IMG/VR virus record: IMGVR_UViG_3300025848_000001 | Location: 55,838 to 119,837 of that record | Reading direction: 5' to 3' (one strand) | From: a virus | Taxonomy: Duplodnaviria; Caudoviricetes | Length of the DNA: 64,000 nucleotides | In this document: piece by piece, positions 9,640 to 55,836 of the stretch | Position numbering within the stretch: position 1 is the first letter of the stretch | How the letters are laid out: the number at the start of each line of letters is the position of its first letter | Made by a program: the position numbers and the translations under genes | The notes under the pieces: model-generated | The model's input: only the letters and a program-made list of their open reading frames with translations | Databases searched by the model: none | What the model was told of the DNA's origin: nothing

Positions 9640-9885
9640 CCCTTATATTCTAGTCGACTACTTTTTAGATTTTGAAAAATGTTAATATATTTTTATGATG
9701 TATGATACATATATTGTACAAAACGGACATTTTGGATAGTGCGCCCATAATTGTGACGTATCTCACATGAATTTTGTGTGATGTCAATCACAATGTCCGA
9801 ATTGTTCGCATTTTCAACTTGCAATTTGTCAGACCCCCATGATAGTATTTTATTATTAGATAGAAAAAAGAAAGGAAGTTTTATA

Positions 9886-10062
9886 ATGACTTCACTAACA
9901 TTAGAGCAAAAGATTATCAAGGCTGCTCACCTTATCGCTGACGGAAAGTTAGTATCTTTCCGAGGTGCTTCGTTTGATACATACATGAAAGTAGAACGCC
10001 TTGCTAATCGTATCAAGCAAGAGCGTGAGTTTCCTCAATGCCCATGCGGTGAGTGTGACTAA
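9886..10062 (+). CDS. small early-island protein (C-terminal CPCGEC)
   Basis: GAAAGGA RBS, MTSLTLEQK...; downstream of promoter 9827. Confidence 0.65.
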   Translation: MTSLTLEQKIIKAAHLIADGKLVSFRGASFDTYMKVERLANRIKQEREFPQCPCGECD

Positions 10063-10150
10063 CCTCACACAATAGACACAGCGTGTCGACTTGATAAAAT
10101 TGAATAAATCTGAAATAATACTAACTAACTAAATGAAAGAAGGTAGCAAA

Positions 10151-10348
10151 ATGAGTGCTAATCTATACAATATCGAAAGTCTACTAATAGGCAAGCCTTA
10201 TCGTAGCCGCTCCGTTGAGGGCGAAATCGTGGAGGCTGAAAAGCATCCTAAGTGTGTCTACTATGCGGATGCTGAGGCTTATCTAGTCCGTATCCGTAAG
10301 AGCATGGGCGGTTATACATACCGCACAGTAGCGGTGAGTGTGGCATAA
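10151..10348 (+). CDS. small early-island protein, paralog of 11212..11439
   Basis: RBS GAAGG; shared YRS...AY.VR.R...T.AVS pattern. Confidence 0.65.
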   Translation: MSANLYNIESLLIGKPYRSRSVEGEIVEAEKHPKCVYYADAEAYLVRIRKSMGGYTYRTVAVSVA

Positions 10349-10772
10349 GTCACACATACCTAACGGCGTGTCGTGTTGCGCTTGTCGGTGCGCTATGATA
10401 ATCTACCGATACAAGATAAAGAATAAAAGAAAAGGAATAGAAAATAATGGATAGATACTTACTAATAGAACTAGGCTCAGATGGAATTGCCTTTGAAACC
10501 GCTCAATTTGATTTCTACGCTTCATGGCTAGGAATTGGAATTGCTATCGTGTCAGTGGTAGCGTATAAGATTTATAAGAACAGAAAGTAAAGGAATAAAA
10601 ATAATGTACGCAATGTCATGGGAAAGAAATACTAGAGACTATAAGTATGAAAGTATCCAGCATGGATATGAGGTACTAGACTATCAAGATGAAGAACCAC
10701 TAGAAATATCACTAGAGGAAATGCTAGAATTAGAAAATGAAGAAATGGAAATGGAAGAATTGGGTGAGATTT

Positions 10773-10871
10773 ATGGCTAAGGATAAATGCTCTATGTGCT
10801 ATGGTAGAGGTGTGATGTATGTAGGCGATAGGTATGAATATACAATAGAGCCTTGTGAGTGTAAAGCATGA
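10773..10871 (+). CDS. 32-aa Zn-ribbon microprotein
   Basis: MAKDKCSMCYGRG...IEPCECKA; paralog of 11782..11937. Confidence 0.5.
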   Translation: MAKDKCSMCYGRGVMYVGDRYEYTIEPCECKA

Positions 10872-11032
10872 ATAGACTACTAACTAGCCTTGTGCAATTA
10901 GCCCTTGTTATACCCGCCCTATACATGGGGCGTATAGCGTGGGAAATGCTAAAAGAAGATGTGAGAGAACTCACAAAATAAATACGGCGTGTCGGCTTGA
11001 CAAAAAGCTGATCGCCCGCAACGATTGTGGAG

Positions 11033-11062
11033 TTATCCACAGGTTTACGGGAGTTATCCACA
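11033..11062 (+). promoter_or_regulatory. two perfect DnaA boxes (TTATCCACA)
   Basis: 11033-11041 and 11054-11062, 21 bp apart. Confidence 0.6.
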
Positions 11063-11211
11063 ACCCCTGGATTTTTGCGACACGCCGAAGATTTTGTGAT
11101 TTTTATCACACGAATTGAGCGTCTCAAAATATGGAATTACTCGCTAGTAAGTAGAAAAATGTCGGTGGGCTATGATACCCTTACAGGGTAACAAAATGAA
11201 AGGAAAACTAA

Positions 11212-11439
11212 ATGATAAAAAAATATTCTACTGAAAACATTCTTGAGGGAACTTATTATCGTTCCACTAATCGTTATCCTATGGACGGACTTATCAACTA
11301 CGCTTCTAAGCGTCATTATTGGGTAGGCGAGGACGCTACTGCCTATGTCGTAAGGGTTCGCCCTATCTATGACCCATCTAACCCTAAAACATGGGGTAAA
11401 GATTTTTGGGCTACTATTGCCGTAAGCCATGCCGACTAA
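11212..11439 (+). CDS. small early-island protein
   Basis: GAAAGGAA RBS; downstream of promoter 11160. Confidence 0.7.
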   Translation: MIKKYSTENILEGTYYRSTNRYPMDGLINYASKRHYWVGEDATAYVVRVRPIYDPSNPKTWGKDFWATIAVSHAD

Positions 11440-11486
11440 ATGTCGGTGGCTTCCGCTATAATCTAAATACTACGAAAGGAAAACTA

Positions 11487-11639
11487 ATGAAAATAAGTGT
11501 AAATGAAAATTATTACTCAACAGACGAAAGTTTTTTTTGCTGTGATGAACAGGTAATAAAAATGTATTGCGAACCTCATGGCGAGTTTATGGGTTGTTAT
11601 TTTTGCGAATTTGATTATACAGAAAAATGCGAATGCTAG
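11487..11639 (+). CDS. Cys-rich microprotein
   Basis: ACGAAAGGAA RBS; MKISVNEN...CC...C..H...C..C...CEC. Confidence 0.6.
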   Translation: MKISVNENYYSTDESFFCCDEQVIKMYCEPHGEFMGCYFCEFDYTEKCEC

Positions 11640-11781
11640 GAGATAAAAAAATGGATTTGATCGATTTTAGAAATTATGTAAAAGCTGAGCGTGAAGCAAC
11701 ACGCCAGCAAAACCTCACCGCAATTTTGTCGGTGGCTTCTGCTACAATTACAGAAAACAACGAACGAAAGGAAAACTAAAA

Positions 11782-11937
11782 ATGAAAGTAATTCACACTC
11801 TATCTTTTGACTGCGATACCTGCTATGGAAAAGGTTGGTTATTTTATGGCGGAGGCGAGGACTATAATGTTGAGCCTTGCGACTGTAACCCTAACTCTGA
11901 TTTTGACGGCTCTTTATTTGTAAAGGAAAATGACTAA
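11782..11937 (+). CDS. Zn-ribbon microprotein
   Basis: AACGAAAGGAA RBS; CDTCYGKG...VEPCDC. Confidence 0.6.
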   Translation: MKVIHTLSFDCDTCYGKGWLFYGGGEDYNVEPCDCNPNSDFDGSLFVKEND

Positions 11938-12082
11938 TGAAAAAAAATGTTCTAATCTCTTTTGTTACTGAGGCTGATACTGATTTGGAAGCGGTATTTG
12001 ACCTAAACAAAATTTTTCTAGCCTTGCCTGAAAGCGAACTAAAAAAGTTTGATGTATTTGATGTTTTGGAGGTTGTTGAATA

Positions 12083-12271
12083 ATGATGACACGAAAAGAC
12101 TATGTTGCTACCGCAGAAATTCTGCGGTATGTATCAGACAAAACTCACCCTGCTGTATTTTCAAAAATGGTTGTAGATTTTGCTGAGATGTTCGCAAGAG
12201 ATAATGAAAGATTTGATGCGAATAAATTTTATTCCGCAGCGAATTACAAAATACCAAGTTTTAGGAGTTGA
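12083..12271 (+). CDS. hypothetical phage protein (MTRKDY...F..DN.RFD..KF family)
   Basis: GGAGG RBS; pattern seen in small phage proteins. Confidence 0.65.
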   Translation: MMTRKDYVATAEILRYVSDKTHPAVFSKMVVDFAEMFARDNERFDANKFYSAANYKIPSFRS

Positions 12272-12603
12272 AATGAAATTACAAAATAAAGAAAGAATAA
12301 AAAAAGTTTTGGAAATTCGCCGCAGTAATGCGGCGACACCAATTCCATCTAAAAAAACTTATTCACGAAAACGAAAACATAAAAAAACCGCTGTTGGTAA
12401 AACTATGAATTGGGATTAGTTGAATTTTCAACTAATCGCCCGCAAGAACTGTGGGGGCGCCAAGCTTGTTACGTCAAGTCCAAAACACCCTTAAAATTTG
12501 TGATGTTTATCACAAAAATAATTTTTAGACACGCCGATAATAAAACTAATTTGTCAGTAGATTACGCTATAATTCTCGCATAACAACAAACGAAAGGTAA
12601 AAA

Positions 12604-12855
12604 ATGAAAGACATGACTAGATGGGCATTATTCCCATTCACCGTTGACGGAGTAGAATTCGTATCTAAGTTAGATATCGAAGGCTCAATGTATAATCAAG
12701 TAAAAAATCTGCCTGCTGGATTATTTACTGCTATGAACGAGGGTGCTATCCGTGAAATAATCGGTTCAGTATCTACTATGTCTAAATCTGAAATTCAGGC
12801 AGAATTAGACCGTGTAAATGAGGGTTATTCGCAGGCTTATTTAGCCCTAGCCTAA
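12604..12855 (+). CDS. hypothetical early-island protein
   Basis: CAAACGAAAGG leader, promoter 12552. Confidence 0.7.
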   Translation: MKDMTRWALFPFTVDGVEFVSKLDIEGSMYNQVKNLPAGLFTAMNEGAIREIIGSVSTMSKSEIQAELDRVNEGYSQAYLALA

Positions 12856-12911
12856 TAATGTCGGTGGGCTAGTGTATAATCTAGCCCACTAACAACAAAC
12901 GAAAGGGAATT

Positions 12912-13184
12912 ATGTTATCAACTGCTTCTGCTCTACTTGAGGCTACTCAAGAGGGAATAATTGGCGATGAACAAATGGAACTTGCTTCTTTTATTGTAAA
13001 TGCTCGCCATGAACTAGACCAAGAACAATTTGCTAAAGCGATGTTTATGTATGCTACTGCTATTGCTTCATGCGTAACTGATAAAGTTACTAAAGTATTA
13101 CTAACTGAAAGTCAATTTAGAGAACTAATTGAAACTATTGACGAAATGGAAACAATGTCTAATGAGGTGCTAAATGGGAAGTAA
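12912..13184 (+). CDS. hypothetical early-island protein
   Basis: CAAACGAAAGG leader, promoter 12859. Confidence 0.7.
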   Translation: MLSTASALLEATQEGIIGDEQMELASFIVNARHELDQEQFAKAMFMYATAIASCVTDKVTKVLLTESQFRELIETIDEMETMSNEVLNGK

Positions 13185-13446
13185 TCTTGCTTATGATTTA
13201 GCAAATGGCGAAATGGATTTATCTAGTGCTATTGCTATACACTTATCAGCTAATCATTATCCACCCGTCCCCAAATTTATGGTGGAGCCGTGTATCGAGG
13301 CTATTTTTGCCTATGATGAAGGCGAAATAGATCGTGAAATAGCCATGCCCGAAGGAGTATCCTATAAAGGTAGAGATACTGCTCCTGCGTGGGCTATTGT
13401 AGAACAGCACCACTTAGATGCGTGGATAACTAACTACGAGGAATAA
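13174..13446 (+). CDS. hypothetical protein (HL..NHYPP...HHL motif)
   Basis: GAGG RBS, overlaps upstream stop. Confidence 0.65.
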   Translation: MGSNLAYDLANGEMDLSSAIAIHLSANHYPPVPKFMVEPCIEAIFAYDEGEIDREIAMPEGVSYKGRDTAPAWAIVEQHHLDAWITNYEE

Positions 13447-13728
13447 TTGTCGGTGGGGTGGTGTATAATCACCCTGTCAAACTAACGAAAGGGAAAAAAT
13501 GCTAGAAATCGGACAAACCTACACAACTACCCAAAGCGGTATTGTTGGAATTATCAAGGCGATTGACAATCACCCAAGTGGAGTAAATCGTATTCTCCTT
13601 GATGTAAATGGCGCAGAACGCTGGACAAGCGCACCTGCTAAATAACAACTAAATAGGCAGGGCTCACCAAAATGTCGGTGGGCTCTGCTACAATTTTGCT
13701 CAACAAATAACGAAAGGAAAATAAACAA

Positions 13729-14154
13729 ATGGCAAGAAACGGAAAATCTATTAGTGTCAAGATTGCTACAACTAAAGTAATCAAAGCACTAGAAACTAAG
13801 TTAGCAGAATTAGAGGCTAACTACAAAAAGCAAGATGAAAACGAAGCAAAATACCAAAAGTCTATGGAAAAATGGCGTAAAGAAGTTGGTAAGTTTGCTA
13901 TTGCTAACATCTCAAAGGCAGAAAACTTCCGCACAAATTATCGCTCATGGAACAAAACTCTCAATGTAGATTTTGACCTGACCTGTAATGAAGCAGATTT
14001 CCCTGCTGAACCTGTGCGTGATTTTGAGGTAATTCATCAGCACACATACAACGAGATGAAAGAGGAAATCTCTAACGCTATCCGTATTCTCAAGATGACA
14101 GATGAGGAAGTTGTAAGCACCTCAACTTACAACGCTATCGCTCGTTATCTCTAA
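13729..14154 (+). CDS. hypothetical early-island protein (coiled coil)
   Basis: AACGAAAGGAA leader, promoter 13673. Confidence 0.75.
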   Translation: MARNGKSISVKIATTKVIKALETKLAELEANYKKQDENEAKYQKSMEKWRKEVGKFAIANISKAENFRTNYRSWNKTLNVDFDLTCNEADFPAEPVRDFEVIHQHTYNEMKEEISNAIRILKMTDEEVVSTSTYNAIARYL

Positions 14155-14227
14155 TAGCGTGGGGGCTAGACAAACTCTAGCCCCCTATGCTACAATTCGT
14201 ATCCCTACTAACAAAGGAAATAAATAA

Positions 14228-14461
14228 ATGCGATTGGCTGAAATATTCGAAGTAGAATACTCAGTAAGTCCTGGCGGTGTAGATTGCTGGGAAATGGAAG
14301 TAAGAACAGGTGTGGGACAACATCACAACTATTCTGAATACAAATCTGCTGGTGAGGCGTTGAATCACCTGCTATCGCTCTATCCTGATGAGCAATTAAA
14401 CATAACAATAACAAATCTAATAACTTACAATAAACTTATTGAAGAAGGTGTTTATGCGTAA
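14228..14461 (+). CDS. hypothetical protein
   Basis: AAAGGAA RBS. Confidence 0.6.
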   Translation: MRLAEIFEVEYSVSPGGVDCWEMEVRTGVGQHHNYSEYKSAGEALNHLLSLYPDEQLNITITNLITYNKLIEEGVYA

Positions 14462-14711
14462 TAGATTTAGAATTGAGATCTATGATGAAAATAAGTTAAA
14501 TGATTTAACTCTTTATTCTGAGCAAGGCGTAGATAAAGAATACTTAACTGAATTAGTATTTTCTAATTTATCTCAGTTTTCTGGTAGAGTAAAAGCATAT
14601 GTCTATGATGAATTAAAAAAGAAAAAGACAGTTGCTTTGTTAATACCTGAAGAAACTGTAATTAATCTTAAACCAAAACAATTGACTAGAATTGAGTTAG
14701 GTTTAATTTAA
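14454..14711 (+). CDS. hypothetical protein
   Basis: GAAGG RBS before MRNRFRIE. Confidence 0.55.
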   Translation: MRNRFRIEIYDENKLNDLTLYSEQGVDKEYLTELVFSNLSQFSGRVKAYVYDELKKKKTVALLIPEETVINLKPKQLTRIELGLI

Positions 14712-14716
14712 AATAA

Positions 14717-14771
14717 TTGGGGCGGGTTTGAACTGTGTAATCATCTAGATTCCCGCCCCATTCCAATTTTT
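14717..14771 (+). terminator. terminator hairpin
   Basis: TGGGGCGGG...CCCGCCCCA then T tract. Confidence 0.55.
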
Positions 14772-14945
14772 GCCCGCAAGAACTGTGGGGGCGCCGAGCT
14801 CTTTACGTCAAGTCAAAAACACCCCTTAAATTGTGAGATTAATCACAATGTCCGATTTGCCCTATCTTACATCTAATCTGTTGCCAAATGTCGGTGGCGT
14901 AGTGTATAATTCAGATTCAATCTAACAATGAAAGGAAATAAATTC

Positions 14946-15956
14946 ATGGCTCATAACCTTGAAACTAATGGCGACGAAGTCGCTTTCGCCCTACGTGGCA
15001 CACCTGCTTGGCATAATCTTGCCAATCGTATCTTCAATCAAGATGAAGATGTCTCAACTCAATTGATGTTAGACGAAGCAAAACTTTCTAATTGGAATGT
15101 TCGCTTGTCTCCAATTACTGATTTTATTCCAGAAAATTGGAATGACACATCAGATTCACAATTGGTAATTCGTACCAATCCATTCAATAATGGTACCGAT
15201 GTTCTTTCTACTGTCGGCTCACGATATAAAGTTGTTCAGAATGAAGAATTATTTTCATTCGCTGACAATATCCTAGATGGCGATTCTCGCTGTGCTTGGG
15301 AATCTGCTGGCTCTCTCAAGGGTGGTAAAGTTGTATTCGGCTCTCTTACTGTCCCTCGTGAAATGGTATTAGACCCACAAGGTGCTAACGATAAAACAAA
15401 ATTGTATCTTATCGTTTGGACATCTCACGATGGTTCTGTCGCTGTTCAAGCAGCAATCACACCTGTTCGTGTTGTATGCCAAAACACTTTGAATCTCGCA
15501 ATGCGTTCTGCTAAGCAATCTTTCAAGATTCGCCATACTCAGACTGCTGAAGGTAAGATTCAAATTGCTCGTGAAACTCTTGGTCTAACTCTTGGATACT
15601 TTGACGCATTCGAGAAAGAGGCTCAGGAATTGTTCAAATCAGAAATTACTGATAAGCAATTCTATGATTTGATTCGCACAATTTATCCTAAGCCTGCGGA
15701 AGATTCTTCCAAATTGGCTCAGACTAAGTGGGAAAATAAAGTTATTCTTCTTGATGACCTTTATTTCAATTCACCTACTAATGCTAACATCAAGGGTACA
15801 AAATGGGGTGCTTTCAATGCGCTTACTGAACGCCTTGATTATTTCCGTCCGACACGGAAAAATAATTCAGAATCTAAGTGGGCTTCCGCTTCAGGTTTTG
15901 ACCCGATTATTACTGCTGAGAAGAATAAAATTCTTCAAGTTGTAAAATCATTCTAA
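14946..15956 (+). CDS. DUF932/DUF945 phage/plasmid-like protein (TIGR03299-like)
   Basis: PAWH.L, Y.VVQNEE.F.F, ESAGSLKGG, SHDGS...TPVRVVCQNTL, IRHT, GTKWGAFNALTE. Confidence 0.85.
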   Translation: MAHNLETNGDEVAFALRGTPAWHNLANRIFNQDEDVSTQLMLDEAKLSNWNVRLSPITDFIPENWNDTSDSQLVIRTNPFNNGTDVLSTVGSRYKVVQNEELFSFADNILDGDSRCAWESAGSLKGGKVVFGSLTVPREMVLDPQGANDKTKLYLIVWTSHDGSVAVQAAITPVRVVCQNTLNLAMRSAKQSFKIRHTQTAEGKIQIARETLGLTLGYFDAFEKEAQELFKSEITDKQFYDLIRTIYPKPAEDSSKLAQTKWENKVILLDDLYFNSPTNANIKGTKWGAFNALTERLDYFRPTRKNNSESKWASASGFDPIITAEKNKILQVVKSF

Positions 15957-15961
15957 AGAAT

Positions 15962-15981
15962 GGGGCCCCGCAAGGGGCCCC
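15962..15981 (+). terminator. terminator hairpin
   Basis: GGGGCCCC-GCAA-GGGGCCCC (GNRA loop). Confidence 0.65.
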
Positions 15982-16137
15982 TCCTCTTCGATCTAATTTG
16001 ACAAAGCTGCAAAAATGCCCGCAGAAGGTAAAGGCGAAAAATGTGTTTTACGTCACATTTTAAAAATCCCCTAAAAAGCCTGGACTTTTGTCAGTCAGGT
16101 CCGCTATAATACTCCATATAACAACGAAAGGAATAAA

Positions 16138-16602
16138 ATGGAAAAAGTAACACAAGATGCATATGCTCCGCACCAATTGATAACTCTTAAGCAGATTACT
16201 GGCGAGGATGTTGAATTCGAGTTATATAAAGTAACTGAGTTAGAAACAGTTTTGCATGATGCAAAGAGTAGAATTAATCAATTAACTGGACGCTTAGAGG
16301 CACAGGAAAAGCAAATTGGTTTAATTTTAAATAAGATGACGTCAGATGAATGGTATTCATCCAGCGTTGAAAAGTTTGAGGTATTGTCAGACCTATGTGA
16401 TATTCTTGGGTTTGAACCAAAGCAAAGCATTCGTATTACTGCTACCGTTGAGGTTGAAGTTGACTACGATTGTCCACTTGATGAAATTGAAGACTTTGAT
16501 GCAGGAGATTTCTTACAAGATGTTTTAACAATTGATACATATCATGGTGATGCTATGGTTTATTCATACAACGTAGAATCAGCAGATTGGGCTACGCACT
16601 AA
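16138..16602 (+). CDS. hypothetical early-island protein
   Basis: AACGAAAGGAA leader, promoter 16089. Confidence 0.7.
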   Translation: MEKVTQDAYAPHQLITLKQITGEDVEFELYKVTELETVLHDAKSRINQLTGRLEAQEKQIGLILNKMTSDEWYSSSVEKFEVLSDLCDILGFEPKQSIRITATVEVEVDYDCPLDEIEDFDAGDFLQDVLTIDTYHGDAMVYSYNVESADWATH

Positions 16603-16969
16603 TGTATTATCAACTACAGGCACCCACTAGCGCAGCCTGCAAGGCTGCCTATTGGGAGGCAGAGTTTTCAGGACTTGACCCATATTGGCTTGAGTCTAAT
16701 GTATTTGAATTAGGAACAGGAAGCATTGAAAAAGTTTCTGCCTTGATTTCCAAATATAATCTTGATATACTAGTTGAATCAGATTATCAACCAACTGGTT
16801 ATACAAGGAGGTAGTATGGACTACAAAGACGGTTTTGAAGACGGAGTTAAGTTTACTCGTGAAGTAATCATTGCTAATATTCGTAAATGGGCTGAGGATT
16901 CTATTCTTGGCGAAGAAGGAGCAATTATGGACAGCGTTGCAGATAAAATCGAATTTGGGACATTAGACA

Positions 16970-17191
16970 ATGACCTCTGAGGATCTTACAATAGAATGGA
17001 TTAAATGCGATTCTTGTTCCGCCCGTGCAGCTTGGCTTGCACGTGGTACTAATGGTGAGCTTACATTTTGTGGACACCATTTAAATAAGAATAAGTCGGG
17101 CCTTGACAGTTGGGCCTATGAAATTATAGAATTGGGTAAAGAAGAACTACCTAAGAAACGAACTAGACGAAAGGCGGTAAAAAATGGGTGA
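16970..17191 (+). CDS. Zn-finger protein (CDSC...FCGHH)
   Basis: CxxC...CxHH pattern. Confidence 0.6.
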   Translation: MTSEDLTIEWIKCDSCSARAAWLARGTNGELTFCGHHLNKNKSGLDSWAYEIIELGKEELPKKRTRRKAVKNG

Positions 17192-17588
17192 CAGAGCAAA
17201 TTTTGTTTTTGTACAACCAAGCGGAGAGACCATTGTCCTATATGGACATTGGGCAGGACATAACATGTTGGAGCATTTAGGCGAGGCTGTAGCCAAGGCA
17301 CAGTCACGTTGGTCGGACCCTTCATATGCAACACGTATAGCAATTAGTCAAATGATTGGCGACGGTTGGGGCATGGAAACTGGATGGGGACTGCAAGTAA
17401 ATGAGATATCAGACAATGAACACAAGATTCCTGTGATTAATTGGCTGGAACAGACTATGTCTCTTCATGAGGAAGATTCACATTTCAACGAATCTAATAA
17501 GGTCCGTGGAATGAAGAATGAAGCGATATTCACAATTGATTTGCGAACGTTTGTAGAGAAATACACGGACGCAAAACTTTTGGTATAA
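17184..17588 (+). CDS. hypothetical protein (MGDR...LYGHW family)
   Basis: ORF in operon with AAGG RBS. Confidence 0.65.
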   Translation: MGDRANFVFVQPSGETIVLYGHWAGHNMLEHLGEAVAKAQSRWSDPSYATRIAISQMIGDGWGMETGWGLQVNEISDNEHKIPVINWLEQTMSLHEEDSHFNESNKVRGMKNEAIFTIDLRTFVEKYTDAKLLV

Positions 17589-17595
17589 TATTAAT

Positions 17596-17719
17596 AATGA
17601 GGTGCCGCTACTAGCGATTCCGCAAGTGGTTAACTAAAGCAGCATTTACTTAAATTCCTTTCGTTTGGCTAGCAGCCTCATATTAATAGGGCCCCTGGGA
17701 TCCAGGGGCCTTTCCTTTT
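17596..17719 (+). ncRNA. candidate trans-acting antisense sRNA against island leaders
   Basis: TGGTATAAT extended -10 at 17581; closing stem ATGAGG-TGC/GCA-G-CCTCAT; TTCCTTTCGTTTG at 17655-17667; terminator GGCCCCTGG-GAT-CCAGGGGCC-TTT. Confidence 0.5.
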
Positions 17720-17868
17720 GCCCGCAGTAACTGAGGGTAGCTAAAGCTTGTTACGTTGTCAAGTCAAAATCCCCTAAATTTTGATCAGCTGCGATGTGTC
17801 CCACATCATATAGACAAATGTCAGTGGGGGGATGTATAATAATGCTCCATAACGAGAAAGGAATATAT

Positions 17869-18615
17869 ATGCCAAACTGGGTATATAACGGTCTAACTAT
17901 TGAAGGTAATCCTTCAGAAATTAATGACCTTGTAGCACAATTAAATAAACCATTCAAAATGGTCCATGATTCATGGAACATGGAAAATGGACAAATGCAG
18001 AAGAAATTAACAACATATCCAAATCCTGTATTTGCATTCTATAACATCTATAACTATATTGAAGACGGTGTTACTGATTATGAATATCTTGCACAACCCG
18101 ACCATTCTTTACCAATTGAAGAATCAATGAAATTTGCAACAAATGATTGGTATAACTGGAATGTTCGTAATTGGGGAACAAAATGGGATGTTGCTGTATC
18201 TTCAGATGATAAATATCCTGATACATATACTGAGGGACCTACTTCTAATGGTGAGAATCTAGTTGTATATTATAACTTTAATACTGCTTGGTCTCCTCCG
18301 TTTCCTGCCATTGCTAAATTATCAGGCCAATACCCAACTCTTCTATTTACACTTAGTTATGAAGAAGAAACAGGTTGGGGTGGCGAATGTGAATTCCTTC
18401 GCAATGAAATGATATCTAATTCAGAGTATTCTAATAAATGTAGAGACTGTGATTCAGAAGATACATTAGATTATTGTGAGAATGATTGTGGAGAAATTTG
18501 CTCTGCTTGTAATTATTTAGGAGAGGCAGACCTTGAATGTGTCAAAGAATGTCAGACCCATAAGATATACTTGGATGAAAATCACGTACCTGAATACAGA
18601 ATGGAGCAAATATAG
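17869..18615 (+). CDS. YubB/DUF1281-like ferredoxin-fold protein with C-terminal Cys cluster
   Basis: MPNWVYN.L, WYNWNVRNWGTKWD, FNTAWSPP, YEE motifs. Confidence 0.8.
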   Translation: MPNWVYNGLTIEGNPSEINDLVAQLNKPFKMVHDSWNMENGQMQKKLTTYPNPVFAFYNIYNYIEDGVTDYEYLAQPDHSLPIEESMKFATNDWYNWNVRNWGTKWDVAVSSDDKYPDTYTEGPTSNGENLVVYYNFNTAWSPPFPAIAKLSGQYPTLLFTLSYEEETGWGGECEFLRNEMISNSEYSNKCRDCDSEDTLDYCENDCGEICSACNYLGEADLECVKECQTHKIYLDENHVPEYRMEQI

Positions 18616-19772
18616 TGGAAGCGTTTACAGATACTCTAGGAGAACATATCCTAGGAGCAATTCAAGTAGATATTGAAGAACATCTATTTGAACAATGGAA
18701 TCAATCTAATTTAGATGAAGGCACGGAATATGCTGAATTTAGATTTATTCAATTTGCACCTGATAGTGTAAAACAATCATACAATGAATTCTATGGATAT
18801 AAAGAAGGAGATGAATACTATGTTGGGATATAGTACAAAGGATGTATTTGATATGCAGAATGCTATTGAATTGGCTCTTCCTTATATTCCCGCCAATTCT
18901 TCAAATGATTTAGTTCGTGAAGGATTGTTATCTGCGTTTGATTTGTTAGAAGGACTAATTGTGGAAGGAAGAATGTGAATCAGTTAATTGAATATATAAA
19001 GCTTCATGTAATTAGTTTGGAACAAGACCAGGAAGATGTTTCTAATGAAATGGAAAAACTGGATATGAACTCTAAAGATTATATTGAATTAGACTTTGAA
19101 TATAATCATCTAGGAGGACAGATTCTTTCTGCCCGCCATATTTTGTCAGTGGCGGAGGATATACTAGGATGATGTACTCAATGGAACTGGAACCACGCCT
19201 GCAGAAGCAGGTTGACATGAACATCTCTGGAACAGATATTTTGCACGGGGAACTCAAAAACCTTATCTATGAGGCTGAAGCAGAACTGGCTCGTGCACAG
19301 GAAATAGAAGAAGAGAACGACTATGGCGACGCCATGGAATCTATGGAAAGAAAGTATTGGGAGGGCCAAGTGGACGGTCTCTCACATGTGTATGCATTAA
19401 CATATCAACTTGCATTCGCAATTAACGAAAGGACAAAAGCACGTGGCTGATATAGATCTAAATAAACTATATAACGATATGGTTGATATTAATGATAGGA
19501 TTACCAAACTTCCTGTATTCCCGTCCCTTGGCTGGGTATGGACCTTTGACATCCTTAGAGATATCTTTGACAACGCCGATACTGGCTATGACGAAGCAAT
19601 CACTGAAGGCGTCACATTACAACAAATCTTTAATAAGTTCTATGAAGACATCGACAAGTTGGACATGAATATGGACCAAGGTGGGGAGATGTTACAGGAG
19701 ACAATCAGAGACTGGATGAGAGACAACGACTTCCTCGTTGCCCTGGATGATGACGGGTGGCTAGATGACTAG
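18615..19772 (+). CDS. run of five short acidic hypothetical ORFs (18615-18833, ~18820-18978, 18975-19172, 19169-19450, ~19443-19772)
   Basis: overlapping start/stop codons, same strand. Confidence 0.55.
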
Positions 19773-22238: not shown

Positions 22239-22835
22239 TTAGTCATTATTATCCTCCAATAAAACTAAATTTTCTTTAATTAATGAAACTGATATATCGT
22301 CAGCTATTATAGATATGTCCTTCACATATAGGGATATTGATTCTTCTCTATGGGATTCTAGATTTTTCGTACTATTCCCGCCTATAAAAATCATACATGG
22401 ACTAATTTTATCATCAAATTCATAGGAAGTTATCAAATTGTTATCAATATAAAAAGATACTGATTTTTCATTTAATAATAAATCTAGGTTATGCCAATCT
22501 TTATCTTCTATTGGACACCCCTCCCATATTTTTAATTCAAACCCATTATTTCTAATGTAAGTTATTAAATTTTCATTTTGGTAGACTAAAGATGCAAATG
22601 AATGATATTCTGCACTGTGTTTAAAATCAACATCAATTATTGCAGCATTGTTTATAGGATTATCTGAATATTTAAATTTCATGTTAAATTTAAGTGTTTT
22701 ATCAAAATTTATCAAATCATATGAGCCCAAACATCCAAATTTTTTAAAACCAGATAAGCCTATCTCATCAGATAATATTTTTAAATTATTTATGTTTGCC
22801 CATTCTAACATTTTGTTATTTTCCTTTAAATCCAC
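22239..22835 (-). CDS. hypothetical protein (LamG/ConA-like)
   Basis: DKDWHNL...SFYIDN...IFIGG. Confidence 0.45.
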   Translation of the reverse strand: MDLKENNKMLEWANINNLKILSDEIGLSGFKKFGCLGSYDLINFDKTLKFNMKFKYSDNPINNAAIIDVDFKHSAEYHSFASLVYQNENLITYIRNNGFELKIWEGCPIEDKDWHNLDLLLNEKSVSFYIDNNLITSYEFDDKISPCMIFIGGNSTKNLESHREESISLYVKDISIIADDISVSLIKENLVLLEDNND

Positions 22836-23280
22836 CTATATTTGGATCCATTAAGCCTGGCTCTAATCCATTGGGATATTTACTATAGAATACTCCTTCG
22901 GCTTCCCGCCCCGCCTGTTCTACAACAAATCCATTTTCACGATCAAATAAAACATAATCTAGCTCTTGAACATCAAAGTATTGCTTGAATATTCTTAGTG
23001 CCTTATGTAGGTCAAGTGTTCCGCATGTATAGAGATCAAATTGAATTAAGCCTGGATCTATCTCATCCCAAATATGAAATGCAATATGGCTAGTTTCAAT
23101 CATAACTACTGCGGTTAGACCTTTATTGCCTTCTGCATCAACATATGATGCAAATGGTCCTTTAATAATTTTCATATCAATCTGGTTAACTAAGAATTTT
23201 AGAAATTCAATACCCTGTTCTTCGGTATTCATTGGGTTCTTTACTTTAGCGTTAACGAGTAAATGCTTATGATATATCAT
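22816..23280 (-). CDS. speD: S-adenosylmethionine decarboxylase proenzyme-like
   Basis: HLL, GLTAVVMIETSHIAFHIW, FDLYTCG. Confidence 0.8.
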   Translation of the reverse strand: MIYHKHLLVNAKVKNPMNTEEQGIEFLKFLVNQIDMKIIKGPFASYVDAEGNKGLTAVVMIETSHIAFHIWDEIDPGLIQFDLYTCGTLDLHKALRIFKQYFDVQELDYVLFDRENGFVVEQAGREAEGVFYSKYPNGLEPGLMDPNIGGFKGK

Positions 23281-23538
23281 TATGCTCCTCACATACAAAT
23301 ATTATTCGATACCCGTCCGAATTTATACCAACGGATGCCTTCTTACAAAAATTGCATACAGATGCTATTTTAACATTTCTATCCCTCAAATGCTGCAGAT
23401 ATGCAGCCTGAAATGGATCTTTCGGAAGAGGGTAATTGCTCACTATCCAATTTTACAATTTATGACAGGTACTGTCAATATACCCTTCTACTTTTCCGCT
23501 TCACTTTTTGAGCTCCAAAATAGTATAATATGTGTATT

Positions 23539-24111
23539 ATGAGTAATAAATTATTAGATTTAATTTCAGAAGCAAAAGATAGCAATAAAACCTATGCAGT
23601 TTTTAAAAATTGGAGAACCCCGCCAGATACAAAAATAATATCAGAATTACATGCAAATAATAAAGAAAGATATGCAAGAACTTCTATAATAAGTAAATAC
23701 AATGAAAAAGAAATTGATTCTTTTTTAAATGAATGCTTATCTGTATACGATATACCAGAATATGCTTTTTACATTATAAAAGGAATGTCTGGCCATGGAC
23801 ATAGTACACACAAAGATCCATACGATATAATTCACTGGCAGTGTAGTGGTTCTACTGAATGGAAAATTGGCAAAAAAGAAATAGGTAAATTATGGGAAGC
23901 TGGGCAAGCAAAAAATGAAAAAGATGGTTTTACAAAATGGAAAGTTAGTTGGCTAGAAGAACCAGATACTTTTATATTAGAGCCAGGTGACATAATGTGG
24001 TTTAGAGGAGACGCTGGCACTGATAGTGGCGCTTGGCATAGCACTCTTAATTTAGATGATAAATATTCAATAGTTTTCGATGCTGGCAAAGAAGAATTTC
24101 CAGAATATTAA
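23539..24111 (+). CDS. JmjC/cupin-like oxygenase
   Basis: HKD...WQCSG...W, LEPGDI, WH. Confidence 0.65.
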   Translation: MSNKLLDLISEAKDSNKTYAVFKNWRTPPDTKIISELHANNKERYARTSIISKYNEKEIDSFLNECLSVYDIPEYAFYIIKGMSGHGHSTHKDPYDIIHWQCSGSTEWKIGKKEIGKLWEAGQAKNEKDGFTKWKVSWLEEPDTFILEPGDIMWFRGDAGTDSGAWHSTLNLDDKYSIVFDAGKEEFPEY

Positions 24112-24115
24112 TCAT

Positions 24116-24712
24116 TTACACATAAGCAATATCTGTACATATTCTAGATCCGCTAGTTACTTCAGTTACAAGATGGATTGTATTTGAATCAAAAACTATT
24201 GCTTCTCCAGATAGTGGTTTTATTTTAATGTCATTTTTATTAACTTCAAATGTTTGATTTAAAAAATCAACACCAACACCACTTTCATTTTTAAAAATTA
24301 CCTCTCCGCCTTCATAATCGCTAGTGAAATATAAAAGTATTGTTATATTTGGAACCTTTTTGCCATCTTTTGAATCCCAAGAATCACTGTGAAACCCAAT
24401 GCTAGACCCTATGTTCCAGGTTTTAATCCAGTATACTTCTTCTCCGTCAAGACGATAATCGTTTAAATTTTTATTAAAATGATTTGTATATATTTTTAAA
24501 ATATTTTTTGTGATCGGATTTAAAATTTCAAAAATATTTTTTTCTGGATAATTTAAATCTTTAGTTACTTCTACGTAATCACCACATCTAAAATGCTTGA
24601 TTTCAAATTTTTCAGATTTTGACAGCAAAAGAACTTTTTCGATATCTTCTTTAGAAATACAATTATTTAAATAAAGACCTTTATCATATATAATGCTATT
24701 TAATTCAAACAT
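24116..24712 (-). CDS. 2OG-Fe(II) oxygenase
   Basis: HSD, YFTSDYEGGE, HLV.EV.SG.R. Confidence 0.85.
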   Translation of the reverse strand: MFELNSIIYDKGLYLNNCISKEDIEKVLLLSKSEKFEIKHFRCGDYVEVTKDLNYPEKNIFEILNPITKNILKIYTNHFNKNLNDYRLDGEEVYWIKTWNIGSSIGFHSDSWDSKDGKKVPNITILLYFTSDYEGGEVIFKNESGVGVDFLNQTFEVNKNDIKIKPLSGEAIVFDSNTIHLVTEVTSGSRICTDIAYV

Positions 24713-24890
24713 ATATATATTATAGCAAATTATTTATTATTCTTAATAATATCAACAGCAAGCAATTTAAATCCAAGTGCGTTTATTTGATGTGGAGCAT
24801 TTAAATCTATTTCATCTAATAACTTTAAAATGCGTTCTTGTTCTTGCTTTACTGCCTTCTTACAGCCTTGACATGGACATAACCAGGCCA

Positions 24891-25106
24891 TTACTTGATT
24901 CTTTTTACTTTAGCCCAAAGACGCTCATGAATATAATATCCTAAAGCTTCCCACGCAATGTATCCTAAAGCACCCAGAGTAGCATATTCATACTCTACAT
25001 CGCCAGTTATAGCATAAGTAACAATAGCAATAATTCCTGCTACTCCAATTAAATGAAATGTTTCCCAGCTTAATGTTTTTAATAATGTTCTTTTATTTGA
25101 TTCCAT
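24891..25106 (-). CDS. DUF2061-like membrane protein
   Basis: KTLSW...YYIHERLW. Confidence 0.7.
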   Translation of the reverse strand: MESNKRTLLKTLSWETFHLIGVAGIIAIVTYAITGDVEYEYATLGALGYIAWEALGYYIHERLWAKVKRIK

Positions 25107-25437
25107 TTTTAATTAGCCTAAAGGCATCTCCTGTTTCGTAATCTTCATAATCCCAATCGAGATTATATTTTTCCCAGTAAGGTACACCTTCTTCGTCATA
25201 ATCATTCCAGCCATCCCCGCTCATATCAAAACTAAACTCATAAAATGTACCAAATTTATAATATACAGGCCAAGTAATTTTCCAAATAAATGAATGCATC
25301 TTGTACTGCCACCCAAAATTTTCTAGTTCGTCTTCGTAGGATATCTTCATAATTGCCCATCCTGCAATTGAACCACACATATTTGCAAACCAAAGTAAGG
25401 GAAGAACTTTAGTTTTATTTACTTTTAAATTACTCAT
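25093..25437 (-). CDS. hypothetical protein
   Basis: ORF in operon. Confidence 0.5.
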   Translation of the reverse strand: MSNLKVNKTKVLPLLWFANMCGSIAGWAIMKISYEDELENFGWQYKMHSFIWKITWPVYYKFGTFYEFSFDMSGDGWNDYDEEGVPYWEKYNLDWDYEDYETGDAFRLIKNGIK

Positions 25438-25600
25438 GGTCTATCTCTTCTTCCCAGTCCATCTCCCAAGACTCCAAAGACTTAGCAAGATCGTCAAATG
25501 CTCTGTATGCGGTAAATGCTGCTGCAAATGCCGCCAATGCTATTATACTAATTTTTTTCATATACATATATTATACTTTATTTATATAACCTAGTCAATA

Positions 25601-26377
25601 TCAATCAAAATATTTTTTAGTCCAAAATTTTTCTTTATAATTTGTTGTATGTTCTATACTATCTTTATTTTCATACATTAATTTCATTTGTTTTCTATGC
25701 TCTAAGGATTGTTCTTCATCATAATAAATATTTTCATGCTCCCACTCTTCATTTTTAAACGGTATTATTTGCATATATGGGGTGCCAGCTTTTATAACGC
25801 CTTCAAAATCTTCCTGAATAAAAAATGGAGCAAGTCCACCATTTATATAGCTACTGCAATCAACAATTCCAGAAACAGTTAAAAATGGTAAATCAAATCT
25901 ATTAAGTGGGTGTGTAAATAACGCTATGTAGCCCTCTGGTAATTGTGGAAACCAATTTGTTGACCAAGTAAAGTGAACTGGGCTATATCCCTCTGGTGTT
26001 GGAAACCCATGTCCTTCACCCCTAATATTACAAAATGCAAAATTTTTAAGATTTACGTTGTTTGAAAACTTTTCATCTATTTTGATAGAATATGAATCTT
26101 TATTTTTTTTTATCTCTATATCGCATGGGGTAAATAGTAAATACCCTGAAGATATAGAATCAAAAACTGCTGGACAAGATTTAAAAGTTTTTTGTCTATC
26201 AAATTTTGTAGATCCATCTTTTGTTTTATAAAAATTTAAAGCTATGTTACCAAATTTATCTCTTATATATTTATCTGCAGACATAAACCAATTAGGGATA
26301 AACTTTTTTGCTGGAGCTGGATTAAATTCTTTGGCAGAATTATTTTGAAAAGTTTTAGAATGAAAAATTATTTTCAT
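25601..26377 (-). CDS. DUF6065-like / dUTPase-fold hypothetical protein
   Basis: FKSCPA, GYLLFTPCD, HPLNRFDLPF, GTPYMQIIPF. Confidence 0.6.
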   Translation of the reverse strand: MKIIFHSKTFQNNSAKEFNPAPAKKFIPNWFMSADKYIRDKFGNIALNFYKTKDGSTKFDRQKTFKSCPAVFDSISSGYLLFTPCDIEIKKNKDSYSIKIDEKFSNNVNLKNFAFCNIRGEGHGFPTPEGYSPVHFTWSTNWFPQLPEGYIALFTHPLNRFDLPFLTVSGIVDCSSYINGGLAPFFIQEDFEGVIKAGTPYMQIIPFKNEEWEHENIYYDEEQSLEHRKQMKLMYENKDSIEHTTNYKEKFWTKKYFD

Positions 26378-27039
26378 TTAATTAACCCAACTATTCCAAT
26401 ATTTAATAAAGATTTTTTTATAGGAAATTGTGGAACTTCTGGGGAAAGCCAATCATGAAGACACGTCACTATCGCATATTTTGTGCCAGATGTTACTGGG
26501 TGAGCTTTATGAGTATAAGCAAAATTAGAAGGAAAAAAAATCATGCTATTTGCTTCTGGTTTTAATTTCAAATTAAAATTTGTAAATTCTATTTCTCCTC
26601 CATCATAATCATCATTTAAATATATTACAACAGAAACAGATCTTGCTGTTTCTGTTGATCCATCAAAATGAGGTTTATATTCTTCATTATTACTATATTT
26701 TAAAACTGTATAAGGCTCATGATAAAGTTCAAATGGAATGTTATATCTATTTTTATACCAAGCAATTGCTTCCTCCACTTTGGTAAAAATTAAATTATGA
26801 ATTTTTTTTGCATTTTCGTTTCCAAATTTTGCATTTTTAGTTATAGCCATAGTGTAATTAGTTCTTACATTTTGGTCTGATCCATATCCAATTGTACCCG
26901 CTTTTTCCCAACTCCATGACTCTTGTTTTAAATTTAATTTATTTTCTTTTTCAAGAATATTTATAATTTCATGTGAATCAGAAAAAACATCTTTAAATAC
27001 TACTATGCAGCTACCTAGATCTTTATCGGGGTTTATCAT
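26374..27039 (-). CDS. 2OG-Fe(II) oxygenase
   Basis: HFD, YLNDDYDGGE, FPSNFAYTH, GTKY. Confidence 0.88.
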   Translation of the reverse strand: MINPDKDLGSCIVVFKDVFSDSHEIINILEKENKLNLKQESWSWEKAGTIGYGSDQNVRTNYTMAITKNAKFGNENAKKIHNLIFTKVEEAIAWYKNRYNIPFELYHEPYTVLKYSNNEEYKPHFDGSTETARSVSVVIYLNDDYDGGEIEFTNFNLKLKPEANSMIFFPSNFAYTHKAHPVTSGTKYAIVTCLHDWLSPEVPQFPIKKSLLNIGIVGLIK

Positions 27040-27040
27040 T

Positions 27041-27502: not shown

Positions 27503-27578
27503 TTTGATTCCTTATTATAAAAACAAATATAAAAAATATTTGCCTGTGCTATATAATACTATATTATATAGCCAATTG

Positions 27579-39544: not shown

Positions 39545-39862
39545 CTAACCGATTCCCTTTGCACTTGGTACCCCTTCAAGTTCGCATCTTACCCCGTAGG
39601 ACTCTATCATCTTTTTTACTCTCATAACATAATCTATAACTTGTTCTTTTTTACTTCCTGTAAACTGTATAAAGTTATCTTCATATAATCTTAAAGCTAG
39701 AAATTCTGGATATTTAACAACATCCATTTCTAAAAGAAGTGGCTTATTCATTTCCCTAAGCCTTTTTCTCATCTCTTCGTTGTAAAACACTGGCTTGTTA
39801 GGTTCACCAGTCCATAAATTAATACCATGTTTAAAATGGTGTTTATCGTTATTAAATACCAT
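39545..39862 (-). CDS. hypothetical protein
   Basis: ORF coupled to whiB. Confidence 0.55.
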   Translation of the reverse strand: MVFNNDKHHFKHGINLWTGEPNKPVFYNEEMRKRLREMNKPLLLEMDVVKYPEFLALRLYEDNFIQFTGSKKEQVIDYVMRVKKMIESYGVRCELEGVPSAKGIG

Positions 39863-40163
39863 TTTTTTTATTAACTTGTTTCCAAATATCTTTTGTTTTA
39901 TGAGTATTTCTCATTTTATCCACTCCGCCAGCATTTAAATAAATGCCTCCCCAAACACCATACTCATTGTTTTCTACACCAGCTTGGTAGCACATAGCCA
40001 TTACTGGACATGATAGACAACACTGATCTATATTAGTTGCTATTTTTGGATCAAGCTCGTACTTATCAAAAAATAAATTTGTATCCATTCCCTGGCATGC
40101 TGCTAAATGCCACCAATTAAGGTTATCTTCGTCCGTATTTAAATCATTTAAAATATTTGACAT
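39852..40163 (-). CDS. whiB: WhiB-family transcription factor
   Basis: W..LAAC...LFF, C..CPV...C, YGVWGG. Confidence 0.9.
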   Translation of the reverse strand: MSNILNDLNTDEDNLNWWHLAACQGMDTNLFFDKYELDPKIATNIDQCCLSCPVMAMCYQAGVENNEYGVWGGIYLNAGGVDKMRNTHKTKDIWKQVNKKNGI

Positions 40164-52037: not shown

Positions 52038-52286
52038 TTATATATTTTCTAATTCTTTTTTGTCAATAGATTGTTCAACTATTTGCTGAACATATTCAGA
52101 AAAATGTTTTCTTATATTTCCTGGTGGTCTTTTACCAGTTTCATTCCATATTCTTTTATATTCAAATATATTATCAAATGTGGTTGGGCACACTTTTATA
52201 CCATTAAATTCTTTTAATCTAACTGGAAGAGGTACATGTTTTCCACAACATTTACACTCTTTAGCTTTATCTTGATATATACTCAT
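52038..52286 (-). CDS. hypothetical Cys-containing protein
   Basis: CKCCG...CP. Confidence 0.55.
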   Translation of the reverse strand: MSIYQDKAKECKCCGKHVPLPVRLKEFNGIKVCPTTFDNIFEYKRIWNETGKRPPGNIRKHFSEYVQQIVEQSIDKKELENI

Positions 52287-54073
52287 AATATTTCCATTCC
52301 ATCTAGTGCTTCCGCCAACTTTCTTGGTAATGGAGCACGAATAATATTTCTATTGTCTTCAAATACAGGTTCATTTATTCTATCTCTTGACTTTAATGAA
52401 GAATAGGTATGTATTTCAACATTACCAAAATCTGGCCTAGTCAAACTAATTGCATTAAATATAGCCCCACATACAGCATCTGCTAAATCTTTTGATCCTT
52501 TTCTTGGGTGATCAACTTTATCTTTTATAATTCTTAATTCAAGCAATTCATCAATTAATAATTTAATGTGTGGACCACTTAATCTTTCTTCTAAAACAAC
52601 CATTGCCATATCGTCATAATGTTTTTTAGCCACAGATAGAGTTTCTGTATTTATTCCATATTGCCTTAATTGTTGCATCATGTCATGAGAATTCCATCTA
52701 TCAAATGTACATATTCTAATTTTAAAACCACGAGATCTTAAAGCAAGAATATAATCTCTAACTTCTGTAAAATCTACAGATTTATCTGATGTTGGTGTCC
52801 AATATCTTACTGCGTCTACCTCAACTATCGGGGCAGGTTGAGAATAATTATCTGTAACTTTTACATTAACCCATTTGTTAATGTGTGCCATTGCAACAGC
52901 ACAATGGTCATGCTTTTGAGCTAAGTCTACGTGTATAAAATAATCTTTATCTTCTTGGGGCAAAAACCATTCTTCAAATCTACCAAAATTATCTACTGCT
53001 AAAGAAAGACTACTGAATGCTTTTTCTACTTTTTCTCTTGATTTAAAAAAAGCATCTATCGCTTCTGGAGGCATACATGCAAATCTACCAAGGGCATCTA
53101 CTGGATCTCTATAAAATGGTACTTTAAAATCATCAATACTTCTAGTTGGGTTTACTTCCCACGTAGGTCTTTTCAATGCATATATTTTAGGGAGCTTATA
53201 AGAAATTATATGATCTTCATCCCAAGAAACTTCAAACTGATTTCCTGGAGTATTTTCAGGTAAATCTGGATCTATATTAAATATATGAGTTCTAACTATA
53301 GTTTCTTTTTCTGCAACAACTTCAGAATACCTTTGTTGAATATAATCATTTTTAAATCTTGGGAATGAAAGTAAAATAACTTTACCATAATCTGGAAAAC
53401 GAGAATCTACTGATCCACGATACATTTCATAAATAGCACTAGCTGTTTTAGCTTGATCATGACCACTTGTACTTTCAAGAGCAAAACCAGAAATCTCATC
53501 CAAAACTGCGACCAAGACGTTATAGCCCTCAAAAGCTTCTCTTTCTGAATGGCCTGAATATACTGTTACATTTTTATTAAATTTAATTTCAGAAGCTTTT
53601 GCTTCATATTTTCCAATAAACCAAGGGCTTCTTTCAATTCTAGTTTTAAACCCTTTAAAGAAAACATTATTAGCTTGTTGTGCGTTAATAGCAATATTAA
53701 TGATGTCTATGGTGTCGCCAGGGGGTTTTCCATAGTAGGTTGCTGGATCTTTAAGAGACAATAGTAAATAAACTATATAGGCTACTGATATTGTTGAGCA
53801 ATAGTCTTTCCCGCTACCCTTACCTAATTGTGCTATTACCTCGTTACAAGTTTGCCTATATCTATTTTTTCCCTCTGTATCCCCAAAAAGTTTAATTAAG
53901 GTAGACTCTTTATAGATTTGGCTACTCTTCTCAATGAGTGTATACTGGTACTCCGAAAGCGGAGGTAGGCCGAGATAGTCTGGGCTTGTAACAAATGTTC
54001 GTAAATCGACTGGTCTTTCATCAAACTCTTCTCCGTCTAATATATCTATTAAATCATTAAAATTTAATTCCAT
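52283..54073 (-). CDS. terL: terminase large subunit
   Basis: GKGSGKD Walker A, VLDE Walker B, HVDLA nuclease, TFDRW, DH...SKDLADA. Confidence 0.88.
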   Translation of the reverse strand: MELNFNDLIDILDGEEFDERPVDLRTFVTSPDYLGLPPLSEYQYTLIEKSSQIYKESTLIKLFGDTEGKNRYRQTCNEVIAQLGKGSGKDYCSTISVAYIVYLLLSLKDPATYYGKPPGDTIDIINIAINAQQANNVFFKGFKTRIERSPWFIGKYEAKASEIKFNKNVTVYSGHSEREAFEGYNVLVAVLDEISGFALESTSGHDQAKTASAIYEMYRGSVDSRFPDYGKVILLSFPRFKNDYIQQRYSEVVAEKETIVRTHIFNIDPDLPENTPGNQFEVSWDEDHIISYKLPKIYALKRPTWEVNPTRSIDDFKVPFYRDPVDALGRFACMPPEAIDAFFKSREKVEKAFSSLSLAVDNFGRFEEWFLPQEDKDYFIHVDLAQKHDHCAVAMAHINKWVNVKVTDNYSQPAPIVEVDAVRYWTPTSDKSVDFTEVRDYILALRSRGFKIRICTFDRWNSHDMMQQLRQYGINTETLSVAKKHYDDMAMVVLEERLSGPHIKLLIDELLELRIIKDKVDHPRKGSKDLADAVCGAIFNAISLTRPDFGNVEIHTYSSLKSRDRINEPVFEDNRNIIRAPLPRKLAEALDGMEIL

Positions 54074-55699: not shown

Positions 55700-55836
55700 T
55701 TAACTAACCCGTTCTCTTTTAATGCTCTATATATGGTCATAACAGTTACGCCACATTCTTTTGCTATATCCTCCATAGTTTTCTTTTGAACTATGTACCT
55801 ACGATATAGCCAATCTTTACTTTTATATAACTTCAT
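55696..55836 (-). CDS. 46-aa HTH protein
   Basis: MKLYKSKDWL...MEDIAKECGVTVMTIYRAL (hand-translated). Confidence 0.65.
   Translation of the reverse strand: MKLYKSKDWLYRRYIVQKKTMEDIAKECGVTVMTIYRALKENGLVK

Follow-up and report, generated by a model that had tools for sequence, protein, structure and literature searches.

Which protein reads a promoter motif that occurs sixteen times within a single gene block of a freshwater virus? The DNA examined, hereafter called the window, comprises 64,000 nucleotides, bases 55,838-119,837 of IMG/VR record IMGVR_UViG_3300025848_000001, which is a complete 119,837-bp genome with an overall guanine-plus-cytosine (G+C) content of ~32%. A block of small open reading frames (ORFs), referred to here as the island, carries repeated copies of a two-part signal, TGTCRG and TAnnnT separated by 10 nt. 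This is the layout of promoters that the actinobacterial DNA-damage activator PafBC recognizes. At the level of sequence, the case is strong that PafBC-type promoters are present in an actinophage lacking a PafBC of its own. That the host's PafBC reads the TGTCRG sites is the explanation toward which we lean, with limited confidence.

Number and geometry of the sites

Sixteen matches to TGTCRGW-N9-TAnnnT were found in the window, from 9827 to 19165, all on the plus strand and none on the minus (Table 1). Shuffled versions of the window gave a mean of 0.39 matches and a maximum of 3. An earlier, sequence-only reading of this DNA had listed 16 plus-strand copies, all of which were recovered in place, and had seen none outside 9.8-19.2 kb. 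The latter holds for the rest of the genome on both strands, since a search of all 119,837 bp returned the same 16 forward matches, none in reverse and none with the reversed control pattern. Relaxing the upstream element by a single position, whichever it was, added at most one or two matches outside the island. The gap between the two parts was 10 nt at all 16 window sites; a gap of 9 nt was seen once and one of 11 nt not at all.

The sequence-only reading had taken all 16 copies to be promoters. This remains likely for the 13 that lie 25-43 nt 5' of a GAAAGGA-type ribosome-binding site (RBS) and an ATG, and not for the remaining three (16385, 18550 and 19144), which are doubtful candidates as gene promoters. 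The logo of the 16 sites shows six fixed letters, after which TGG is favoured. A G at -14, two bases 5' of the -10, creates an extended -10 in 11 of the 16, and an A-rich run just upstream is the other feature. No -35 consensus was seen in this logo.

Because DnaA boxes and other repeats occupy the same island, the sites might be thought to be non-transcription signals, e.g. for replication, packaging or recombination. Their fixed relation to a consensus -10, their restriction to one strand and their distance from an RBS and ATG all speak against this. In addition, the cultured relative Karimac has an orthologous gene with an ordinary promoter in the corresponding position. We regard a role outside transcription as very improbable.

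Agreement with the PafBC consensus

The consensus obtained for PafBC by chromatin immunoprecipitation is tGTCgg(N10)tA(N3)T, the upstream part of which, at -23 to -28, is named the -26 element (PMC8635444). It is contacted by the helix-turn-helix (HTH) of PafB via R46 and R50 (PMC8635444). At promoters without a -35, PafBC is placed between sigma region 4 and the DNA, and its activity requires single-stranded DNA (ssDNA) (PMC8635444, PMC11804915). Every letter of this layout recurs in the phage sites, with a GTC-containing element in 16 of 16 by pattern, and the identification of the motif with the published consensus and its -26 element, as first proposed from the letters alone, is upheld.

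Elsewhere in the phage, we found 54 minus-strand TGnTAnAAT elements, many before genes and none with TGTC or a -35. The rest of the genes are probably transcribed from these elements. Since TGTCRG is absent from the other phage promoters, the element appears to mark one separate gene or temporal class.

Conservation in related viruses

A set of 54 related viral contigs was recovered with the island's 342-aa DUF932 protein (52-94% identity). TGTCRG-N10-TAnnnT occurs in them 556 times in forward orientation, compared with 9 times in reverse and 9 times for the reversed control, and the forward sites represent 417 distinct 42-mers. The gap is 10 nt at 556 sites, 9 nt at 13 and 11 nt at 3. Such an invariant gap fits co-recognition of TGTCRG and the -10 by one complex. 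At the promoter of the DUF932 gene, both elements are kept across the relatives while the spacer and flanks drift, which argues for selection on a two-part signal that is read as a unit.

In a scan of IMG/VR with one strict version of the motif, nearly all listed loci with at least four same-strand sites encode homologues of the phage's ORFs. Among the matches listed, the one exception is a short locus on a contig whose other loci carry phage homologues, and the single matches look like chance.

The G+C content of the island is 37-40%, compared with 26-36% in its flanks, where nearly all genes lie on the opposite strand. A megablast search of the island against cultured phages gave no match. 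At the protein level, a DUF945 homologue was found in Karimac within a block of small one-strand genes that is present at both genome ends and forms a long terminal repeat of roughly 12 kb. Because the homologue sits in these repeats, the island can be regarded as the counterpart of the terminal-repeat block of the Stanwilliamsviridae. From this terminal-repeat position and the style of the genes, the island genes would be of early type. Four metatranscriptome runs from four separate studies contain contigs that cover parts of the island; such contigs do not reveal transcription starts, the strand or the expression level, and they may partly stem from carried-over DNA.

Relatives with a higher G+C content (43-48%; the L040 and L042 islands) have few PafBC-type sites, and 9-11 same-orientation DnaA boxes precede their island genes. 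These boxes suggest that the upstream promoter element has been swapped between clades.

Search for a phage-encoded reader

The sequence-only reading had noted the lack of a PafBC or WYL gene in the window, and a six-frame Pfam search extended this to the entire phage genome, in which no WYL domain was found. Sigma70_r2 (sigma region 2) was likewise not found in a six-frame search of the whole genome. A six-frame search for a T7-type RNA polymerase (RNAP) found none, and the positive controls of that search gave nothing either. The sole DNA-binding-like match was a 57-aa frame at 55717-55818 on the minus strand with a sub-threshold HTH (Sigma70_r4, 18 bits; HTH_11, 14 bits). Pfam analysis of 20 island and 10 flanking ORFs found no transcription factor among them; the island matches were DUF932, DUF1281_C and DUF7455.

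These results bear on the possibility that a factor made by the phage or delivered with the virion, either MotA/AsiA-like or a PafB mimic, reads TGTCRG and places the island in a delayed-early or middle class under phage control. The confinement of the element to one gene block is like that of a temporal class. Most phage ORFs, all of the small island ORFs included, have no known family, such that an unrecognizable factor is possible, and the five "module-head" promoters, which have -35-like hexamers, could be the first to fire and so supply it. However, the six-frame searches gave no WYL, sigma or clear HTH gene, and such a factor would need to have converged on the exact sequence and spacing of an activator that belongs to the host's own phylum. 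The likely hosts, moreover, already make PafBC and use the motif, as described below. We consider a phage factor unlikely, while giving it real weight.

The phage and its candidate hosts

The phage is an actinophage, as judged from its WhiB gene and Stanwilliamsviridae-like terminase. WhiB is a marker for calling freshwater actinophages (PMC10914622), and the gene in the window gave a Pfam match above the cut-off. The large terminase is 57-65% identical to those of Streptomyces Stanwilliamsviridae phages and 43% identical to that of Rhodococcus phage Grayson. Besides WhiB and the terminase, the traits shared with this family are the repeat-type block with DUF932/DUF945, a genome of ~120-130 kb and tRNAs, eight of which lie in the window. 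DNA of the phage is present in freshwater and river metagenomes. With 32% G+C and a freshwater origin, it is not a mycobacteriophage, and Mycobacterium smegmatis could only be, at most, a stand-in host for such a phage.

Of 301 sampled Actinomycetota genomes, 257 encode WYL proteins, as do 395 of the 401 Actinomycetes genomes sampled, and 25 of the 29 Actinomycetes genomes of 1.5 Mb or less had exactly two WYL matches. These tallies include 11 (Actinomycetota) and 10 (Actinomycetes) genomes flagged as unpublished, none of which is among the specific genomes examined. Five complete 1.3-Mb genomes of the Actinomycetes sample belong to "Ca. Planktophila" species or a Nanopelagicaceae bacterium, according to the names on exact RecA sequences. 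In each of the five, recA is preceded by a perfect site of the TGTCAGTGGC form, in agreement with the phage consensus, and a LexA-box-like palindrome lies directly after this site. Other Planktophila sites, in similar positions across species, lie before carD and before a LysM gene with LexA-like boxes around it; we take the latter arrangement to resemble that of Rv2719c, the neighbour of lexA in M. tuberculosis. Planktophila has a tandem WYL pair, and the product of its upstream gene can be aligned from end to end with the M. smegmatis PafB chain of 7P5X, the structure of PafBC with RNAP (E value 1.6e-47); both R46 and R50 are kept.

A metagenome-assembled genome (MAG) of Aquiluna also has tandem WYL genes, and its PafB aligned to the 7P5X chain with R46 and R50. 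Its sites lie before RmuC, an RNase_T-family exonuclease and an HTH gene just upstream of recA, and recA itself has a site with one mismatch. The sequence-only reading had proposed that the host be checked for pafBC and for the same motif before its recA/uvr genes. PafBC orthologues are encoded in both candidate groups, and the recA motif is intact in Planktophila and imperfect, by that one mismatch, in Aquiluna. Site counts over whole candidate-host genomes showed no excess over the reversed-pattern control; the informative features are the sequence bias and the gene context. On this sequence evidence, the likely host groups make the PafBC reader and use the motif.

Several other approaches to the host were dropped. 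The phage WhiB is only 35-42% identical to its matches in the 301 Actinomycetota genomes, which is uninformative. When it was searched against genome contigs, it hit only a phage-like contig of 40% G+C in the 52% G+C Aquiluna MAG. Three small genomes of the phylum sample were set aside as hosts because they gave no WYL match; one of them is Humimicrobiaceae-like by RecA, with 38% G+C around recA.

Proposed mechanism and evidence against it

We propose that the sites would serve as promoters of an early-type block, each combining a TAnnnT -10, usually TGn-extended, with TGTCRG exactly 10 nt upstream. The host's housekeeping RNAP could read this layout only when PafBC bridges sigma region 4 and the DNA, a mode called "sigma adaptation". 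With no such factor of its own, the phage would borrow the constitutively present PafBC of its host. PafBC is switched on by ssDNA, and the trigger would be ssDNA made by the phage. We infer three of these steps, namely PafBC binding at the sites, the block being early and phage-made ssDNA as the trigger.

Several observations weigh against this proposal. A -35-like hexamer, defined as at least four of the six positions of TTGACA with a 17-18 nt spacer, is present at five of the 16 window sites (9827, 11160, 14889, 16089 and 17819) and at 40% of the relatives' sites, compared with 9-14% at control offsets. Near-consensus extended -10 elements at most sites mean that firing independent of PafBC is possible. 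The four cultured relatives checked (Karimac, Gilson, Faust and Grayson) have only 0-2 matches per genome, and the repeat block of Karimac, the one of the four that was read, uses a TTGACA-like -35 and a TAGACT-type -10; the design is therefore neither ancestral nor obligatory. The sole host lead, which is weak, is the related phage-like contig binned in the Aquiluna MAG. Lastly, a lytic phage whose first genes depend on an ssDNA-activated factor would face a start-up problem.

The hexamers could also mean that the sites are self-sufficient sigmaA promoters of the extended -10 and partly the -35/-10 type, with TGTCRG acting as an operator for early shut-off or as a PafBC decoy. TGnTATAAT-like -10 regions are common, and where a -35-like hexamer is present, TGTCRG falls inside an ordinary 17-18 nt spacer. 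The number of sites would suit a decoy as well, as the phage has 16 and Planktophila genomes have 2-6 TGTCRGTG-type sites per 1.3 Mb. On the other hand, the hexamer is missing from 11 of the 16 window sites and leaves no signal in the logo, and hence the sites as a group do not conform to canonical sigmaA -35/-10 promoters. It is also missing from those closest to consensus (11441, 11727, 12859, 13448 and 13673); the five sites that have one are those preceded by long elements in which CRP-like and DnaA boxes occur. An asymmetric element of 6-8 nt, on one strand and at an invariant distance from the -10, is unlike the operator of a dimeric repressor. The phage's other promoters lack the element, which excludes a general spacer preference. 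We judge self-sufficient promoters to be distinctly unlikely.

A bolder form of reading by host PafBC would treat the ssDNA alarm of the host as both an ignition switch and a trap, with the upstream element a swappable socket across the family. DNA ends or nicks at entry, or host nucleases, would activate PafBC, and the terminal early block would fire. As the phage DNA replicates, the 16 strong sites on each copy would draw PafBC off the host's repair and anti-phage regulon. The socket would hold whatever element suits the host factor at hand: the PafBC element in this phage, a -35 in those of Streptomyces and DnaA boxes in the higher-G+C sister clade. This combination is speculative, and we think it rather improbable as a whole.

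Comparison with known systems

The nearest known system is the RecA-NDp/PafBC promoters of mycobacteria and other actinobacteria, which have the same 22-nt layout, an element at about -23 to -28 and mostly no -35. The extended form TGTCRGTGG also stands before recA in "Ca. Planktophila". The phage sites differ in being viral, in number (16 in 9.4 kb) and in not preceding host repair genes. In some of them the extended -10 is stronger and a -35-like hexamer is added, and PafBC binding is only predicted here. In the middle promoters of T4, the -35 is similarly replaced by an upstream element whose reader remodels sigma region 4. However, T4 encodes MotA and AsiA, and the MotA box lies at -30 with another sequence and spacing. 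No phage factor that could be a T4-type reader was found, and no search aimed at MotA/AsiA homologues was made; the element in the phage is one that belongs to the host.

The terminal-repeat block of Karimac shares with the island a homologous DUF932/DUF945 gene and ~10 kb of small one-strand ORFs, each with a promoter. The large terminases of Stanwilliamsviridae are 57-65% identical to that of the phage, and the two phages have similar genome sizes and many tRNAs. In contrast to the island, the Karimac promoters have a G+C-rich box upstream of a TTGACA-like -35 and a TAGACT-type -10. The DriD promoters of Caulobacter resemble the proposed system in that an ssDNA-switched WYL activator of the host drives a non-SOS damage regulon, but the protein, the binding site and the phylum are different.

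Literature searches on PafBC, RecA-NDp, sigma adaptation or Stanwilliamsviridae together with phage promoters returned host-side work only. They turned up no paper on such a phage regulon, in agreement with the sequence-only reading, which knew of none. If reading by host PafBC is correct, no earlier phage regulon would have relied on a DNA-damage activator of the host, as opposed to plain sigma promoters or a phage-made factor. The start of infection would then be tied to the ssDNA signal by which hosts sense damage and attack, and more than 400 natural promoter variants would be available for studies of sigma adaptation. Lake and river metagenomes commonly contain this clade, whose likely hosts rank with the most abundant bacteria of fresh water.

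Other features of the island and its surroundings

Table 1. Positions of the island, its 16 TGTCRG-N10-TAnnnT sites and two marker genes in the window
Feature	Position	Strand	Remarks
Island	9827..19165	+	~30 small ORFs; contains all 16 sites
Site 1	9827..9848	+	ahead of ORF 9886-10062; -35-like hexamer, 18-nt spacer
Site 2	10383..10404	+	ahead of ORF 10447-10590
Site 3	10550..10571	+	ahead of ORF 10604-10780; within 3' end of previous ORF
Site 4	11160..11181	+	ahead of ORF 11212-11439
Site 5	11441..11462	+	ahead of ORF 11487-11639; no -35-like hexamer
Site 6	11727..11748	+	ahead of ORF 11782-11937; no -35-like hexamer
Site 7	12552..12573	+	ahead of ORF 12604-12855
Site 8	12859..12880	+	ahead of ORF 12912-13184; 8-bp inverted repeat flanks -10
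Site 9	13448..13469	+	ahead of ORF 13499-13645
Site 10	13673..13694	+	ahead of ORF 13729-14154
Site 11	14889..14910	+	ahead of DUF932 gene 14946-15956; promoter kept in most relatives
Site 12	16089..16110	+	ahead of ORF 16138-16602
Site 13	16385..16406	+	within ORF 16138-16602; no RBS/ATG downstream; doubtful
Site 14	17819..17840	+	ahead of ORF 17869-18615 (DUF1281_C domain)
Site 15	18550..18571	+	within 3' end of ORF 17869-18615; doubtful
Site 16	19144..19165	+	-10 ends 4 nt 5' of ATG at 19169; doubtful
WhiB-like gene	39852..40163	-	Pfam match above cut-off
Large terminase	52283..54073	-	61-65% identical to Streptomyces Stanwilliamsviridae phages

Seven perfect and two near-perfect palindromes of the CRP/GlxR type (TGTGA-N6-TCACA) were found between 9752 and 16057, all within the island and mostly 65-95 nt 5' of the points at which transcription from the "module-head" promoters is predicted to start. 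At no more than one mismatch, 11 such matches were counted against 2.3 expected. Site 1 has two CRP-like boxes upstream. Two consensus DnaA boxes, 21 nt apart (11033-11062, with starts at 11033 and 11054), lie 5' of site 4, as does a CRP-like box at 11095. Site 7 is preceded by a ~120-nt repeated upstream element and by a CRP-like box at 12499.

The island contains further repeats. A multipart repeat of ~70-120 nt (12427-12498, 14761-14832, 17720-17774, 11008-11030 and 16047-16075), two copies of which are 85% identical, heads several gene modules just 5' of a PafBC-type promoter. Another repeat, of ~48 nt with a short hairpin and a CGGCGTGTCG box, is present at 10046-10093, 10331-10378 and 10952-10999. 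The box also occurs reversed near 11078 and 12528, close to sites 4 and 7. The stretch 17643-17667 is 83-85% complementary to the leader and RBS region that several island genes have in common. In two promoters (12866-12887 and 13455-13474), the arms of a 5-8 bp inverted repeat surround the -10. A hairpin bracketing the -10 was rejected as a general feature because its enrichment across the relatives was weak (28 sites compared with 16.8 +/- 4.1) and came mostly from one orthologous promoter.

Outside the island, the region 22816-30653 contains genes for metabolism and modification, among them several for 2OG-Fe(II) oxygenases, one that is JmjC-like and one that resembles S-adenosylmethionine (SAM) decarboxylase genes, and a carbamoyltransferase gene lies at 48334-49773.

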